The notes beneath the pieces were generated by a model. The model was not told the origin of the DNA, did not search any database, and worked only from the letters and a program-made list of their open reading frames with translations. From Escherichia phage YD-2008.s, in the sequence record NC_027383.1: a DNA stretch of 44,613 bases; one strand, given 5' to 3'. Both the position numbers and the translations under genes were made by a program. Positions 19,268 to 42,862 of this stretch are shown piece by piece. How positions within the stretch are numbered: position 1 is the stretch's first letter; each line of letters begins with the position of its first letter.

Positions 19268-19650
19268 TTTATGCAGTTGCCGTCGGTCATTGTATCAGCG
19301 AATTTAAAACAAACCTTATTCAGTCTCAGACGAGGGGGGCCATTGACCCCCGTCTAGTCTGAAAGACTGGGCTTTGTCCCGCCTGTCCCGATCGGCTAAA
19401 ACCCGCGGCAGCACTGGCTGGGACAGGGGTGCTGTCCCGCTTTGTCCCGCCCAATTCTGCCCCGCTTTTTGTCCCGTTTGTTTTATGCAGAAAAACCGCA
19501 TAGCCATTCACTTTTGAGGGGTGGGACAGATCGGGACAGCACCCCCGTCCCGCTTTTAGTTTATGCAATGAAAGTGAGTATATATGCGGTTTAATGGTGG
19601 CGGGACAAAACGGGACGTCCCGCCTGTCCCGCTTCGTTATGCGGGGTTCT
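19268..19650. repeat. iteron-rich structured noncoding element A
   Basis: ~380 bp without a credible ORF; at least 12 GTCCCGC/GCGGGAC heptamers; hairpin AGACGAGGGGG...CCCCCGTCT; palindromes GGGACAGGGGTGCTGTCCC and CGGGACGTCCCG; core 19307..19480 is homologous to 35962..36135. Confidence 0.6.
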
Positions 19651-35961: not shown

Positions 35962-36135
35962 TTATGCAGTCTCAGACGAGGGGGTGACAGACCCCCCGTC
36001 TAGTCTGAAAGACTGGGGTGCTGTCCCGCTGTCCCGCTCCTCGCCAGGCCGCGTCATCCGGGGCGGGACAGGGGTGCTGTCCCGCTTTGTCCCGCCTCCT
36101 GTTTGTCCCGCTTTTTGTCCCGCTTACTTTATGCA
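35962..36135. repeat. iteron-rich structured noncoding element B (homologue of 19307..19480)
   Basis: Same hairpin stem AGACGAGGGGG/CCCCCGTCT with a different loop; GGGACAGGGGTGCTGTCCCGCTTTGTCCCGCC shared block; about 7 GTCCCGC copies; bounded by TTATGCAG on both sides; AT-rich stretch follows. Confidence 0.6.
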
Positions 36136-36229: not shown

Positions 36230-38500
36230 TTAATCTTTCAGGTCATCATCGGTCGCCGAAAGCGTAATGGGGATACCCGATTTGATAACTAAATTCGACG
36301 ACCCATAGATGGCCCCGGTGTGCGGATCTGTATAGAAACCAATCACGCCGCGCTCTACCATATCGTCAATTGCCTTCGTCGATGTGCCACCTTTCGCGAG
36401 TCCCGCCTGGCGGACGATTGCCGATTTGCTGAATCCGGTATGGTCCGGGTTATCTTCCATCAGCTTCTCCAGTGCTGCATAAAGCACTTTCTCTTTTTCG
36501 GTGCGCGGTCCGGCGGTGTTCTCTTCCTTAACTGCGGCTTTTCCTGCGGCCTTCGCCTGTTCTATAGCGAACGGTGCCAGGGCGACCGGTACGAGGTATA
36601 AAGTCTCGTCGCGCGGGGTGGACGCAATTGGTTTGACGTCCCAACCGGCAACTACGTCTCCGAAGTCCGGACCGGTGCTGGTGGACTGGTGCGACGCGAA
36701 CGCTTCTGACTTGCGGAGATCTATCGCCACCTTGCACTTGAGCAGGACGAAGCCACGCGGCGCTTGCTTGATGCCGTTACGTGATTTTTCGTGGTACAGG
36801 TTAAGTTGTCCCGGCTGGTTGTCGTCCGGCTGTTCCAGGAAGAAAGCGGAATCGACAGCGCCATGAAGCGCACCGGACCCGCGCGGGGATCTGCTGCCGT
36901 TTGCACCCTTCGCCGGGTGGTGGATGACGCCCGCACTGCCACCTGTATTTTCCGCAATGGCTTTCAGCGCTTTGACCACTTCACCCATATCGCTGGCGTT
37001 GTTCTCGTCAAACGGTTTAGCCTCGGCGGACCGCAGCGCAACAGTCTGGTTGAGTGAGTCGAACGCCACCAGGCCAACCGGTTCGCCGTTAGCGGTGCGG
37101 TTGATAAAGCTGATAACTTCGCGCAAGCCTGATTTGCTGGTGATATCCCAGCCGCGTGACTGCAGGTCTATAATGTGCAGCTTGTCCAGGTCGTGCTCAT
37201 ATTTAATCTGCAATGCTTCTTTACGCTGGTTGGAGGCTTCGCCACCTTCCGCGTCGAAATAGAAGCAATGAGACTGGACGACCTTCGCACCGCCGAACGG
37301 AATACCCGCGGCAACCGCACCCATCTGCCCCAGCACATAGAATGACTTGCCTATGTTCGACTCACCCGCCATGTACCAGGTCGATTTGAAGTTAATCAGA
37401 CCTTCGATGATCGGGTCGTGCTTACTGAATAGTGCGACCGGCTCGTTATCCAGGTCCGCATCGGTGCACACGCCGTATTCTTCGCCGTCTCCAACCGCAT
37501 CAACAATATGCTCATATAAGGATTCGACTTCCTCGTCGTCCAGCCCTGGAAGGATGGCGGCGATTTGCTTACGGGACATATTGTGTGGCTCGACGTTCAG
37601 GTGGTCCGGGATCCCGATAAGACGTAGCGCCAGGTGCTGGTGTCTATTCAGTTCCGAGCAACACTCGTTGCCGGTGTGCATACACTTGAAACGGATCTCG
37701 CCATCCTTAACCATGATAGCCGTCGACCCTTCGCCGCTGTGCAGATGTTCGTTCGGGCACGGCACTTCATAACCGCGACCGGAAGATAACTCCTCGAATC
37801 CTGCCTGGAAGCACCAGTCCAGAATACCGTCTGCCACTGCGTCGTCGCCCTGGGTAAGCTCGCGGCGTACTTCCTCTTTTTCCACCCCCAGCTTATCCGC
37901 CAGGCGGAGCAGACGCCGCACATTGGCACGTTTGCCGTAGTGGCACTTAATAACTGACTGCTGGTGTGGCAGGTACATCAGGCGGTTTGTGTCTTTCGTG
38001 CAATCGTCGAAGTCCACATCTGACAGACCAAGTTGGTGTAATAGCGCATACTGGACACGGCCCAGGTCTTCAGCCGGGACAGGCTTGTCAGTGAGTACCA
38101 GGAATCGAGCGCAACGCGTGCCGCCTTTCAGTGGGTGACGGTCGCCGGTGGTTGTGTGAAAAACGTGTTCAAGACCCGCGTCGATGAAAGCCTTACGGCA
38201 GCGGCGCAAGGTGCGAGTGTCGGTGCGGTCGATATCGAAGAACAGGATCGAGCGGTCCACCGCACTGGTCTTGCGGCGAAGGCCGTCACTGGTATATGCC
38301 ACGATGCCATCGGCCTTACGCTTGCGGCGCGCATACTCGGCTTTATCTTCCGTCTTATTGATATGCACCGAGGAGATTTCTTTCGCATCTTTGATAAATT
38401 CGAAAAATTCATCGGTGGTCATCTGGAAGTTTTCCGCCCTGGCTTTTTCGCCTTTTTTAGCGGGTCTTGTTACGGCGAATTTAATTAAACTCATGGTCAT
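36230..38500 (-). CDS. DNA primase/helicase (primase domain + P-loop NTPase)
   Basis: 756 aa; Walker A AGESNIGKS and Walker B-like VGLVAFDS in the central region; size and layout of phage primase-helicases. Confidence 0.75.
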   Translation of the reverse strand: MTMSLIKFAVTRPAKKGEKARAENFQMTTDEFFEFIKDAKEISSVHINKTEDKAEYARRKRKADGIVAYTSDGLRRKTSAVDRSILFFDIDRTDTRTLRRCRKAFIDAGLEHVFHTTTGDRHPLKGGTRCARFLVLTDKPVPAEDLGRVQYALLHQLGLSDVDFDDCTKDTNRLMYLPHQQSVIKCHYGKRANVRRLLRLADKLGVEKEEVRRELTQGDDAVADGILDWCFQAGFEELSSGRGYEVPCPNEHLHSGEGSTAIMVKDGEIRFKCMHTGNECCSELNRHQHLALRLIGIPDHLNVEPHNMSRKQIAAILPGLDDEEVESLYEHIVDAVGDGEEYGVCTDADLDNEPVALFSKHDPIIEGLINFKSTWYMAGESNIGKSFYVLGQMGAVAAGIPFGGAKVVQSHCFYFDAEGGEASNQRKEALQIKYEHDLDKLHIIDLQSRGWDITSKSGLREVISFINRTANGEPVGLVAFDSLNQTVALRSAEAKPFDENNASDMGEVVKALKAIAENTGGSAGVIHHPAKGANGSRSPRGSGALHGAVDSAFFLEQPDDNQPGQLNLYHEKSRNGIKQAPRGFVLLKCKVAIDLRKSEAFASHQSTSTGPDFGDVVAGWDVKPIASTPRDETLYLVPVALAPFAIEQAKAAGKAAVKEENTAGPRTEKEKVLYAALEKLMEDNPDHTGFSKSAIVRQAGLAKGGTSTKAIDDMVERGVIGFYTDPHTGAIYGSSNLVIKSGIPITLSATDDDLKD

Positions 38501-39916: not shown

Positions 39917-40095
39917 TGAAATTTTTCGTGCTGGCAACATGCCACGAATTAGACGACCATTGCTCTTTTATTGTTGAAAACACTAATGCAAGCAATTGCT
40001 TTGTGGACGCACAAAACGAAGTTAAGCGCCGCGTCGAAAAAGCGGGCTTGGCGAATGTGAAATATGTAATTGTCCAGTTTACACGGGTGGAATAA
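39916..40095 (+). CDS. possible small protein (59 aa)
   Basis: ATG 39916 overlaps the upstream stop; its stop overlaps the exonuclease start; below track cutoff. Confidence 0.3.
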   Translation: MKFFVLATCHELDDHCSFIVENTNASNCFVDAQNEVKRRVEKAGLANVKYVIVQFTRVE

Positions 40096-41525
40096 TGGCG
40101 ATTAAACCAAAACGTAAAACGCAATCCGGTAGCAACACGGAACACTCATTACTCGGCCCATCCGGTGCTAAAAAATGGATGGGGTGTCCTGCCGCCCTGG
40201 TGGTGGAAAAAGATATCCCGAACGAATCCGGGCAAGCCGCGATTAACGGTACGAGTATGCACACCGTATCTGAAGTGGTGCTAAACCGCATTATCGCCGG
40301 TGAGAAGCTGATTACCGCGAAGACATATAAAGGGTGCTACGTCGAGAACGAAGGCAAGGGGCCGGTAAAGGCCCACCCGAAAGCACAGAAAGGCGGCGTA
40401 CTGGTCAACGACGATATGGTGAAGCAGTGCGATGCGTACATCGACCACTGGCGTCCGCTCCTTGAAGTGGCGGAGTTTGTCCAGCTTGAGATGCGCGCCG
40501 ATCTGACCCGCGTCCTTCACCCAGGCTTCGAGATCGACGGCAACCGGGTTAAGACGTTCGGTACCGCCGATATGGTCATGGTCATGAAGAAGACCGACGG
40601 CACGTACATGCTGATTGTTGGCGACCTGAAGACGGGACGACATAAGGTCGAGGCGAAAGAAAATAAACAGCTTATGCTGTATGCGCTCGGCCTGCTGCGC
40701 AAGCTGCAAACTATGTACGACATTACGACCGTTCGCCTGGTTATCTTCCAGCCGTATTGCGGCGGGGCGTCGGAGTGGGATATTTCGGTAGAAGCGCTGG
40801 AGATATTCGCGAAGTTTGCATCCAAGCGCGCTATTGCCGCACTGGAGGCGTATTCCCGAGGCAAGAAGGGACTCACCCGCGCTGACTTCCGGCCCAGCGT
40901 CGATGCGTGCCAGTGGTGCAGATTTGCGGACCAGTGCAGCATCCGGGCGAAGGCCGCAATCGACACGATGACACCACCAACGGCAACCGACGAAGACCTG
41001 GGCGACGACGTGAGTATCGCTACCGAGGAAGAATGCGCCAACCACGATCGCAATATGGCCCGCGAAGCCCGGAAGGCTGCTCGACGTGCTAAACGAGGCA
41101 AGAAGGAATCCACACCAGGCGCTATGAGCGCTGCGGAACTGCGCAAGGCTTATGAAGGCCTGGACGCAATGCGCCAGCACATCAAGGCTATCGAGTCCGC
41201 GGTATTCAAGGCGGTCATGGCGGGCGATGGCGAATCGCTGGGCCTCAAGATGGTTGCCGGTAAGGAAGGGATCCGGAAGTGGGCGGACGAGAGCGAAGTG
41301 ATTGAAATATTCACGAAGGCCCGGATTAAGCGCGATGTGATGTACAAAGAAACATTGCTCAGCCCGACAGATGCCGAGAAGGTACTGAAGGACGAAAAAC
41401 CGAAAGTGTGGGCAAAGCTGTGTGCTAAAATCACACGCGCACCCGCTAAACCGGTGTTAGCACCAATCGACGACCCGCGCCCTGCGTGGTCGGAGGCCAC
41501 TGACGAGGACTTAAGCAATGAATAA
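40095..41525 (+). CDS. PD-(D/E)xK exonuclease, Cas4/RecB-like with C-terminal Cys cluster
   Basis: 476 aa; ...GTADMVMVM...IVGDLKTGRHK... nuclease core; Cys cluster CQWCRFADQC; long charged C-terminal extension. Confidence 0.65.
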   Translation: MAIKPKRKTQSGSNTEHSLLGPSGAKKWMGCPAALVVEKDIPNESGQAAINGTSMHTVSEVVLNRIIAGEKLITAKTYKGCYVENEGKGPVKAHPKAQKGGVLVNDDMVKQCDAYIDHWRPLLEVAEFVQLEMRADLTRVLHPGFEIDGNRVKTFGTADMVMVMKKTDGTYMLIVGDLKTGRHKVEAKENKQLMLYALGLLRKLQTMYDITTVRLVIFQPYCGGASEWDISVEALEIFAKFASKRAIAALEAYSRGKKGLTRADFRPSVDACQWCRFADQCSIRAKAAIDTMTPPTATDEDLGDDVSIATEEECANHDRNMAREARKAARRAKRGKKESTPGAMSAAELRKAYEGLDAMRQHIKAIESAVFKAVMAGDGESLGLKMVAGKEGIRKWADESEVIEIFTKARIKRDVMYKETLLSPTDAEKVLKDEKPKVWAKLCAKITRAPAKPVLAPIDDPRPAWSEATDEDLSNE

Positions 41526-41760
41526 AGTATTCGCAATCTTATTGATGTTTTTGCTAGGCGCACTGGGCTTTATCCTGCATTGCGTGCAAGGCGTGTTAAT
41601 GGTGGCCTGGATGATTCGCCATCCGACCCGCTGGCTGGACGACGGCTATAGAGAAGCTGCCGTCGATTGGGTGGAAAAGAACATCGAACGCCCGCCGTTA
41701 AGCTGGATCGAGAACGCCGTCAACTACGTGACCAGAAATATTTTTAATAAAAGTGCTTGA
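41518..41760 (+). CDS. small membrane protein (80 aa)
   Basis: N-terminal hydrophobic helices AILLMFLLGALGFILHCVQGVLMVAWMI. Confidence 0.45.
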   Translation: MNKVFAILLMFLLGALGFILHCVQGVLMVAWMIRHPTRWLDDGYREAAVDWVEKNIERPPLSWIENAVNYVTRNIFNKSA

Positions 41761-41785
41761 CCGCTTAGGCGCAACCAAGTAAATT
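41757..41785 (+). promoter_or_regulatory. sigma70-like promoter TTGACC-N17-TAAATT with two GCAACCAAG boxes
   Basis: -35 41757-41762, -10 41780-41785; GAGGAA RBS and ATG 41851 downstream. Confidence 0.45.
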
Positions 41786-41850
41786 GGCAACCAAGCCGAA
41801 CGGGGTGGCTCACAATAACCCCGATACATGTGAAAATGAGGAATTGGAAA

Positions 41851-42633
41851 ATGGCTAAAGTCAACCTGAAAAATGTGCGCGTATGTTTCCTTAATATTTG
41901 GGAACGTGATACCCCTAAACAGGCTGGACAAAAACCGGCATACCGCGCCGTGATTCTTCTGGATAAAGAAGATCCGCAGGTGGATAAAGTGGAAGCGGCA
42001 GCGCGCGCAGCGCTCACCGTCAAGCTGAAATCCGAGAAGAATGCCGATAAGTGGATGGACCGCCACTACGCCCAGGATTCTAAGGAATGCGCAGTCCGCG
42101 ACGGTGACGAGCGTGACGAAGTAACCGAAGAATTTGAAGGCATGTTGTACATCAACGCCAAATCGTTCAAACAGCCGAACATTCAAACGTCACTCGGCGA
42201 GAAGCAGACGGAACAAGGTCTGACTGTAGAAGGCGACGAGATCGAAGGCCAGGAGATCTACTCCGGTTGCTATTGCAATGTGTCCCTGGATATTTGGGCG
42301 TGGAACAATACCAACGGCAAGGGACTCGGTGCTGGCCTTTTGGGTCTGCGCTTCCGTGATGACGGCGAAGCCTTCGGCGGTGGCGGTTCTTCTTGCTCCG
42401 ACGAAGACCTGGGCGACGATGACGAAGATGAACGCCCGCGCAAGTCCAAAAAGTCAAAACGTCGTGATGACGATGACGAAGACGACAAGCCGCGCAAGTC
42501 CAAAAAGTCCAAGCGCCGCGATGACGATGATGATGACGAAGACGAGAAACCTCGTAAACGTCGTAAGCCACGCGATGACGAAGATGAGGACGACGACGAA
42601 GACGAAGCGCCACGTAAACGTCGCCGCCGTTAA
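41851..42633 (+). CDS. putative single-stranded DNA-binding protein with repeated acidic/basic C-terminal tail
   Basis: Start at ATG 41851 with GAGGAA RBS (track start 41830 rejected); N-terminus MAKVNLKNVRVCFLNIWE... resembles phage SSB-like proteins paired with Cas4-like exonucleases; C-terminal tail has four repeats of (D/E)n-PRK(S/R)KK. Confidence 0.5.
   Translation: MAKVNLKNVRVCFLNIWERDTPKQAGQKPAYRAVILLDKEDPQVDKVEAAARAALTVKLKSEKNADKWMDRHYAQDSKECAVRDGDERDEVTEEFEGMLYINAKSFKQPNIQTSLGEKQTEQGLTVEGDEIEGQEIYSGCYCNVSLDIWAWNNTNGKGLGAGLLGLRFRDDGEAFGGGGSSCSDEDLGDDDEDERPRKSKKSKRRDDDDEDDKPRKSKKSKRRDDDDDDEDEKPRKRRKPRDDEDEDDDEDEAPRKRRRR
42412..42630. repeat. ~54-bp tandem coding repeats (4 copies) in the SSB-like gene 3' end
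   Basis: GATGACGA(T/A)GA...CCGCGCAAGTCCAAAAAGTC...CG(T/C)CG(T/C) repeated. Confidence 0.55.
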
Positions 42634-42652
42634 GGGCAAAGCCCACTATTCA

Positions 42653-42676
42653 AGCCCGCTTAATGCGGGCTTTTTA
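42653..42676 (+). terminator. intrinsic terminator
   Basis: AGCCCGC ttaat GCGGGCT followed by TTTTT. Confidence 0.6.
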
Positions 42677-42691
42677 ATAGGACAATGAAAA

Positions 42692-42862
42692 ATGCGCATT
42701 AAAGCCAGCGAAGTAAAAGTCGGAATGCAGGTATGGTCTAAACTGCTGGGCGAGTATTTCACCGTTGCCGAGATTCGCAACAACGGCGAGGAGATAACCC
42801 TTTCCGACGGTATCTTCTCCATGATCGGCAGCGCCGACGCCGTAGTGAGGATTAAGCAATGA
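42692..42862 (+). CDS. possible small protein (56 aa) upstream of the polymerase
   Basis: ATG 42692; stop TGA overlaps the polymerase ATG; below track cutoff. Confidence 0.3.
   Translation: MRIKASEVKVGMQVWSKLLGEYFTVAEIRNNGEEITLSDGIFSMIGSADAVVRIKQ

Follow-up and report, generated by a model that had tools for sequence, protein, structure and literature searches.

Escherichia phage YD-2008.s (NC_027383.1; 44,613 nucleotides, analyzed as a whole and referred to below as the window) encodes a protein that binds single-stranded DNA (an ssDNA-binding protein, SSB) and whose C-terminal tail alternates acidic and basic blocks. Judged by its sequence, the window is a Dhillonvirus genome; Dhillonviruses are HK578-like siphophages of E. 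coli with genomes of about 44–45 kb. The SSB gene matches 153 phage records at 83–97% nucleotide identity, nearly all of them Dhillonvirus. A reading of the window from its letters alone (the sequence-only reading) had placed the start of the gene at 41851, which is correct and in frame, and GAGG, its ribosome-binding site, lies 9 nt 5' of this ATG. That the gene encodes an ordinary Dhillonvirus SSB was known already. What is new is a conserved variant tail, for which nature offers a series of alleles, together with a motif that is associated with it and shared with other proteins. The gene is laid out as follows (all features on the plus strand).

41851..42633, plus: SSB gene, 260 codons and a stop, from the ATG at 41851 to the TAA at 42631-42633 (open reading frame (ORF) listing and sequence)
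41851..42381, plus: Enc34/gp2.5-type oligonucleotide/oligosaccharide-binding (OB)-fold ssDNA-binding domain, residues 1–177 (Pfam, AlphaFold2, Foldseek)
42382..42399, plus: Gly/Ser hinge GGSSCS (sequence; low model confidence from residue 174)
42400-42465, plus: unit 1, DEDLGDDDEDE-RPRKSKKSKRR, 66 bp, net charge -1
42466-42519, plus: unit 2, DDDDEDD-KPRKSKKSKRR, 54 bp, net charge +1
42520-42573, plus: unit 3, DDDDDDEDE-KPRKRRKPR, 54 bp, net charge -2
42574-42630, plus: unit 4, DDEDEDDDEDE-APRKRRRR, 57 bp, net charge -5
42400..42432, plus: first acidic box DEDLGDDDEDE, within the PF10991 match (to residue 193) and holding an (S/T)D(D/E)DL motif
42433..42573, plus: variable middle (basic block 1 and units 2 and 3), near charge-neutral, the stretch lost in natural alleles
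42574..42606, plus: last acidic run DDEDEDDDEDE (from the unit boundaries and the charge of each unit)
42607..42630, plus: Arg-rich C-terminal tip APRKRRRR, the same in 15 of the 16 complete Dhillonvirus alleles (KPRKRRRR in SECphi4)

Architecture of the Tail

The tail begins after FGG (...DGEAFGG, ending at residue 177) and comprises 83 residues, the GGSSCS hinge followed by the four units (about 78 residues). The sequence-only reading had described a tail of about 75 residues made of four tandem repeats of about 54 bp. In the protein the four units are indeed present; in the DNA, Tandem Repeats Finder recovers a 54-bp period at 42415-42539 that is repeated only 2.3 times (86% matches, score 178). 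Owing to the divergence of units 3 and 4 in DNA, the four-fold structure is clear in the protein but only partly visible in the nucleotide sequence.

Charged residues make up 78% of the tail; its net charge is -7, and its 29 Lys/Arg residues fall in four blocks. The segregation of charge into blocks is pronounced (blockiness z=+10, kappa ~0.59), and none of 2000 shuffles of the same residues reached the observed value. By its charged fraction (0.78), kappa and blockiness, the tail is a strong block polyampholyte. It is predicted to be disordered, with an AlphaFold2 predicted local distance difference test score (pLDDT) below 60 and no secondary structure. Disorder and net negative charge are what is expected of a canonical SSB tail, but the window tail is neither free of basic residues nor closed by an acidic, hydrophobic or aromatic tip. 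The first acidic box aligns with the end point of the structures 4klk and 4jg2. Because this box lies inside the Pfam match and at the ends of 4klk and 4jg2, we place the start of the clade-specific addition at residue ~195.

Family and Fold of the SSB

The Pfam family PF10991 (Enc34_ssDNA-bd, formerly DUF2815) matched residues 3–193 at 110.7 bits (cutoff 26; E=8.4e-32), over profile positions 2–172 of 176. Sequence matches in the PDB were the DUF2815 structures 4klk and 4jg2 and Enc34 ORF6 (5odj/5odk), and PHROG 112 ('Gp2.5-like ssDNA binding and annealing protein') matched with E=2e-56. The AlphaFold2 model, built on an alignment of 51 homologues, has pLDDT of ~90 or more over residues 1–173 and below 50 from residue 174. 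Foldseek searches of the PDB with this model returned, all with probability 1.00, 4klk (6e-12), 5odl (1e-11), 5odj and 4jg2, then T7 gp2.5 (1je5, 2e-6); the Enc34 ORF6 complex with ssDNA is among the matches. There was no Pfam match to the E. coli-type SSB family (PF00436), and Foldseek comparisons with bacterial and mitochondrial SSBs gave E>0.3. The T4 gp32 family gave no match in the Pfam, PDB-sequence or Foldseek results.

In the profile alignment, G139-C140-Y141 falls on the GCW of Enc34, which puts Y141 at the position of Trp150. In Enc34, Trp150 stacks on ssDNA at the start of strand β4, and its counterpart in T7 is Tyr158. C140 and N143 are invariant among 54 homologues. The SSB-like N-terminal domain of the sequence-only reading, which was to be checked by a hidden Markov model search, is upheld by the profile, PDB and PHROG matches, by a modeled core with pLDDT >90 and by the structural likeness to Enc34 ORF6 and T7 gp2.5. 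By sequence and model, the gene product is a replicative SSB of the Enc34/T7-gp2.5 type. A preference for ssDNA is indirectly suggested by the near-identical SECphi4 and SECphi18 proteins, which are SSB-type triggers of the Retron-Eco8 defense system.

The Tail in Related Phages

Among 120 homologues with 40–98% core identity, alternating acidic/basic tails occur in essentially all, the exceptions being two entries with frameshifts. Basic blocks vary in number: one in 11 homologues, two in 47, three in 50, four in 10 and five in 2. The 116 intact tails were analyzed for charge. Basic blocks are interleaved in every one of them, median blockiness is z=6.5 (z>3 in 114/116), the median charged fraction is 0.67 and the median net charge is -8; charge does not follow tail length (r=0.03). 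A basic tip is present in 75/116. The clade with interleaved tails takes in Dhillonvirus, Jerseyvirus and Kagunavirus, together with many relatives known from metagenomes. In Jerseyvirus and Kagunavirus the SSB has one unit (...DDLEDDEDE-APRRERRRNR), and in Hafnia phage TS33 it has three. A scan of IMG/VR with the SSB protein yielded three close loci, and the acidic peptide patterns matched ~600 irrelevant stretches; GenBank phage records were used instead. From these sequences, the mixed tail is a trait of the whole clade and not a peculiarity of one phage.

The wider family was sampled with the OB domain alone as query, giving 147 representatives of clusters at 50% identity. Most of these have an acidic tail that closes with a hydrophobic or aromatic tip (DDDIPF, DDDLPW, DDLPF, DDWLS, EDDWLS). 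Mixed-charge tails occur in 12 of the 147, six from the query's clade and six scattered, so the tail is as unusual for its family as had been claimed. The distribution suggests that basic residues have been gained repeatedly and independently in PF10991 SSB tails. The scattered cases are the distant members P0189, P0192, P0220, P0242, P0244 and P0186; distant mixed tails include DRGRDRRDD repeats in a 360-residue protein and RD/RS-rich tails (P0189, P0192).

Natural Variation in Unit Number

The sequence-only reading had noted that tandem repeats allow the copy number to change, and cultured Dhillonviruses do carry one, two, three or four units. One unit is found in welsh (202 residues) and two in EP23 (224 residues). 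HK578, JL1, Envy, BF9, the second LM40P1 record and SECphi4 (241 residues) have three, whereas the window, SSL-2009a, SECphi18 (261 residues), rolling, SO-1 and Kente have four. In a sample of 60 of the 153 records, with unit number judged by length alone, about 48 are at the four-unit length (771–798 bp).

Different units are missing from different alleles. Unit 2 is absent from HK578 and Envy, unit 3 from JL1 and BF9, and both from EP23. In welsh, the first acidic box is fused directly to APRKRRRR, with loss of basic block 1, units 2 and 3 and the acidic run of unit 4. All losses are in frame and between repeats; slippage or unequal recombination between these repeats gives rise to the alleles of one to four units. 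Whatever its unit number, every Dhillonvirus allele examined retains the Arg-rich tip as well as the first acidic box, and the net charge of the tail ranges from -3 to -13 over these alleles. A dispensable tail would have told against the sequence-only reading. Natural alleles show that phages can do without the internal units and stay viable, but no sequence examined lacks the Arg-rich tip along with the first acidic box.

Selection on the Tail Peptide

Selection was estimated from 15 Dhillonvirus alleles. The ratio of nonsynonymous to synonymous differences (pN/pS) is 0.13 in the tail, with pS 0.38, and 0.07 in the core, with pS 0.29. The two PRKSKKSKRR blocks of the window protein are the same peptide encoded with four synonymous differences. 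The combination of low pN/pS and free synonymous divergence indicates that the constraint is on the tail peptide and not on the DNA. Since the constraint falls on the peptide, both a role for the repeats as iterons or regulatory DNA and internal units that are pure filler are disfavored.

An ORF in the +1 frame (42278..42688) was considered as a real gene and rejected; selection is in frame 0, and the +1 frame is open because of GA-rich codons. Two entries are frameshifted into it, P0005 (GenBank record 22664B1) and the metagenomic protein P0010, and acquire a spurious C-terminus of the MTKMK... type. In the record of phage vB_EcoS-22664B1 (L027, 380-1189), the frameshift follows DDDLGD and the other frame still encodes a complete three-unit tail; this frameshift is probably a sequencing error. 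Frameshifts of the P0005/P0010 type are likely to be sequencing or assembly errors in the repeat.

A Motif Shared with the Nuclease and Primase-Helicase

The motif in the first acidic box recurs elsewhere in the window. The pattern [ASTC][ST]D[DE]DL was scored over ~14,500 residues of window ORFs; it was seen four times against 0.015 expected, and none of 2000 shuffles contained it more than once. All four sites lie in three replisome proteins, the SSB, a nuclease and the primase-helicase.

42400-42411, plus: SSB tail, CSDEDLGDD (clade consensus ATDDDLGDDDD)
40989-41000, plus: nuclease, internal, TATDEDLGDD
41502..41513, plus: nuclease C-terminus, ...EATDEDLSNE
36239..36250, minus: primase-helicase C-terminus, ...SATDDDLKD (gene 36230-38500)

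The motif-bearing peptides are SSCSDEDLGDDDEDE (SSB), PAWSEATDEDLSNE (nuclease) and ITLSATDDDLKD (helicase). Relatives, Guernseyvirinae among them, retain the motif at their C-termini: for the nuclease, VSEEDLE in K1G, FTEGDLE in ER18 and VKDDLGD in TS33; for the helicase, ASDEDLNS in VLCpiS11a, VEDDLEN in STM-ZS and TTEGDLE in SETP3. Within Jerseyvirus genomes the motif co-varies, as seen in the SETP3 helicase (C-terminal TTEGDLE), the ER18 nuclease (C-terminal FTEGDLE) and the ER18 SSB (VDDLEDDEDE). By analogy with phage T7, TD(D/E)DL is probably a common replisome docking motif for the SSB, nuclease and primase-helicase.

The nuclease also contains the only other Lys/Arg-dense run in the window proteome, REARKAARRAKRGKK, at residues ~330–344 (window ~41080-41125, plus strand). 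It lies about 20 residues after the internal TDEDLGDD box, and this acid-then-basic order resembles one tail unit. In the K1G nuclease the counterpart is LAEELEDDFVLEL, with no Lys/Arg-dense block after it.

Gene Context and Flanking Signals

The SSB gene lies in the order DUF2800 nuclease, small membrane ORF, SSB, 56-residue ORF, family-A DNA polymerase, which matches the annotated order in SSL-2009a. The membrane ORF between the nuclease and SSB genes has 80 residues.

40095-41525, plus: DUF2800/PD-(D/E)XK (PDDEXK_1) nuclease gene (Pfam match)
41757..41785, plus: sigma-70-like SSB promoter TTGACC-17-TAAATT (consensus scan; conserved in SECphi18, SSL-2009a, HK578 and rolling)
42652..42675, plus: terminator-like hairpin and U-run directly 3' of the SSB stop codon (RNA fold of 42634-42685)
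42692-42862, plus: 56-residue ORF between the SSB and polymerase genes (no Pfam match)
from 42859, downstream of the SSB gene: DNA_pol_A, family-A DNA polymerase (domain match)

A published SECphi18 mutation that escapes Retron-Eco8, 66 nt 5' of the ATG, aligns to the final T in the -10 hexamer (window 41785), and the promoter is supported because this mutation falls on it. SSB expression is probably lowered in the SECphi18 upstream escapers. For SECphi4, an equivalent A>G change upstream of SSB is listed (bioRxiv 10.1101/2022.08.27.505566). Downstream of the gene, the fold of 42634-42685 has an energy of -24.8 kcal/mol (z=-5.4), matched by none of 200 shuffles; the hairpin was not flagged by the consensus terminator scan but is clear on folding. 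In the 5' untranslated region, a stem (GGGGUG...UAACCCC, 41801-41823, plus strand) is conserved across Dhillonviruses and thermodynamically ordinary (z=-0.8). It might be a translational operator, by analogy with T4 gene 32. The GC-skew profile was set aside as a clue to the gene, as it reflects nothing beyond the switch in transcription strand.

A homologue of the 56-residue ORF in a SECphi phage is 96% identical. In phages escaping a defense system, the SECphi homologue carries a frameshift or upstream mutations (bioRxiv 10.1101/2022.08.27.505566, Table S2). The polymerase gene is annotated as 3189 bp in SO-1 (L021, a Sodalis phage) and EP23 (L014, a Shigella phage), compared with 2292 bp in other relatives, and the record for SO-1 mentions a self-splicing group I intron.

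Elsewhere in the window, the octamer TGTCCCGC is clustered at 36022-36123 (7 copies) and 19375-19632 (5 copies). It occurs 13 times in the window against 2.2 expected, and none of 100 shuffles had as many. The cluster at 36022-36123 lies a short way downstream of the stop codon of the primase-helicase gene, and an AT-rich stretch comes next. The clusters are arranged like iterons or operators and might represent an origin or an array of regulator-binding sites.

Comparison with Known Systems

One close counterpart is ORF6 of the Enterobacter/Hafnia phage Enc34 (PDB 5ODJ/5ODK/5ODL), the founding member of PF10991. It shares with the window protein its family, fold, disordered C-terminal tail and stacking aromatic (Trp150 for Y141). 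Its tail differs in being short and acidic, Asp/Glu accounting for 16 of the last 29 residues, whereas that of the window has 83 residues, 29 Lys/Arg and an RRRR end. Removal of the Enc34 tail allows the protein to bind double-stranded DNA (dsDNA), and according to the Enc34 paper all prokaryotic and phage SSBs characteristically have an acidic tail.

T7 gp2.5 has a related OB fold and is likewise a replicative SSB that works with a family-A polymerase and a primase-helicase; its tail is net acidic, disordered and partner-binding. Identity is only ~12–14%, basic blocks are absent from the T7 tail, and the window protein ends in poly-Arg and has its presumed docking motif internally. In T7, the gp2.5 tail contacts polymerase and helicase, and the C-terminal Phe232 is essential for polymerase binding. 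T7 gp4 also has an acidic C-terminal tail that contacts the polymerase, which parallels the motif common to the SSB, nuclease and helicase here.

The likeness to T4 gp32 is one of mechanism only, as the proteins are not homologous. In gp32, a basic segment confers cooperativity, and an acidic disordered segment binds partners and occludes the cleft. The two segments are at opposite ends of gp32, while the window tail interleaves them. In composition, RKSKKSKRR resembles the Lys/Arg-Ser/Thr 'LAST' motif. E. coli-type SSBs, of another family, also have a variable-length, low-complexity disordered region between the OB domain and a conserved terminal element, but their linker is Gly/Gln/Pro-rich and uncharged and their tip, DDDIPF, is acidic-hydrophobic. 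Alternating acidic and Lys/Arg-rich tracts are known from the eukaryotic nucleic-acid-binding proteins nucleolin, nucleophosmin and Nopp140. These block polyampholytes are alike in composition only; the proteins and their cellular context are unrelated.

The SSBs of SECphi4, SECphi6 and SECphi18 are genetically identified triggers of Retron-Eco8, with escapes at T56P or in the promoter; the structure prediction displayed residues 1–186 with the flexible C-terminal residues omitted, and only the OB core was treated (bioRxiv 10.1101/2022.08.27.505566). The SECphi4 and SECphi18 proteins are ~92–95% identical to the window SSB and have the same gene context, and T56 is present in the window protein. 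SECphi18 has the same four units as the window, SECphi4 three. Type III Sir2-HerA is also triggered by a Dhillonvirus SSB. No description of the mixed-charge composition of an SSB tail, its variation or the shared motif was found in the literature searched, with most subscription journals outside its reach.

Possible Roles of the Tail

The reading we favor, with somewhat more confidence than doubt, is that the tail has three parts, a docking acidic box, variable neutral units and an Arg tip, which together form an electrostatic switch or cooperativity module. The acidic box with its (S/T)D(D/E)DL motif would be the counterpart of the canonical SSB tail and would dock a partner. By analogy with gp2.5 and Enc34 it may compete with DNA for the OB cleft, and it may favor ssDNA over dsDNA, as seen in Enc34. 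The near-neutral internal units would set tail length and valency with net charge unaltered, and the invariant Arg-rich tip would close the protein. Basic blocks and tip could pair with acidic blocks of their own tail to give a closed state. Alternatively, the basic blocks could pair with the acidic blocks of a neighboring SSB, which would produce cooperativity on ssDNA like that of the basic N-terminal domain of T4 gp32, or with the DNA backbone. Such contacts would permit salt-sensitive tuning of DNA affinity, of discrimination between ssDNA and dsDNA and of exposure of the docking motif. Docking on a common partner is inferred because the T7 gp2.5 tail contacts both polymerase and helicase and the tail of T7 gp4 is similar. 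The sequence-only reading had raised self-inhibition or nucleic-acid condensation; a plain DNA-condensing polycation is unlikely because tail and core are both net negative.

Several observations weigh against this three-part module. Because phage welsh is viable with one unit, the additional units cannot be essential. Nor do all members of the clade have a basic C-terminus: in 38 of the 116 homologues the last basic block is followed by a short acidic tip (NRDED, NYEDDEE). DNA polymerase, the most likely common docking partner, is proposed only by analogy with T7. Lastly, deletion of the T7 gp2.5 tail leaves Retron-Eco8 activation intact, so defense phenotypes may not report on the tail.

Other explanations account for part of the data. 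The acidic box and Arg tip might be all that matters, the internal units being inert, self-neutralizing filler that drifts in number. Viable phages with one to four units fit such neutral expansion, as do internal units with net charges of -1, +1 and -2 and a tail charge that is independent of length. It is nevertheless unlikely, although worth serious attention: the low tail pN/pS and freely diverging synonymous sites extend to the internal units, most sampled Dhillonvirus records hold the four-unit length, and two or three units are typical even in relatives that share only 40–60% identity. If instead the repeats acted as DNA (iterons, an origin or a regulatory site), the peptide would be incidental. 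Tandem 54-bp repeats inside a replication gene recall the lambda ori, which lies in gene O. This idea is barely credible, given that synonymous divergence in the tail is at least that of the core, that most differences between units 1 and 2, within identical PRKSKKSKRR blocks, are synonymous, and that distant relatives share the charge pattern while their DNA is unrelated; the TGTCCCGC clusters are also better iteron candidates.

A role as a condensate scaffold would have blocks of opposite charge drive multivalent tail-tail coacervation, with or without ssDNA, gathering abundant SSB and motif-bearing partners into a replication compartment for which unit number sets the threshold. The high charged fraction and kappa, and a charge pattern that is conserved while the sequence is not, are consistent with such a scaffold. 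It is also known that E. coli SSB forms condensates via its disordered linker and tip, and that blocky polyampholytes self-coacervate. We regard the scaffold as improbable, since the net negative charge of both tail and core opposes self-association and one-unit alleles occur. It is more improbable still that tail length is selected in an arms race, to evade or decoy the sensors of SSB-sensing immunity. Dhillonvirus SSBs do trigger Retron-Eco8 and type III Sir2-HerA, and unit number differs between otherwise near-identical phages. In SECphi4 and SECphi18, every reported Eco8 escape is either T56P, which changes the OB core, or a promoter-down mutation, and none falls in the tail; the T7 tail is dispensable for activation, and selection on the tail is purifying, not diversifying.

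Implications

An acidic tail or tip has been held to be universal for bacterial and phage SSBs and central to DNA release and partner recruitment, yet about two-thirds of the 116 clade tails end in poly-Arg. The clade includes SECphi4 and SECphi18, phages in use for work on SSB-sensing immunity. The natural series of one, two, three and four units on a near-identical core makes a role of charge pattern and valency directly testable, and the TD(D/E)DL motif offers a testable handle on how a poorly studied replisome holds together.

A bolder version, which we consider quite doubtful, makes the tail a valency-tunable 'electrostatic zipper' that joins SSBs on ssDNA or drives SSB-ssDNA coacervation into a replication compartment. 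TD(D/E)DL would then recruit SSB, nuclease and primase-helicase to one hub, and unit number (1–4) would set the assembly threshold. If this were true, enterobacterial siphophages of a large clade (Dhillonvirus, Guernseyvirinae and relatives) would have swapped the supposedly universal acidic SSB tip for another organization of the replisome.

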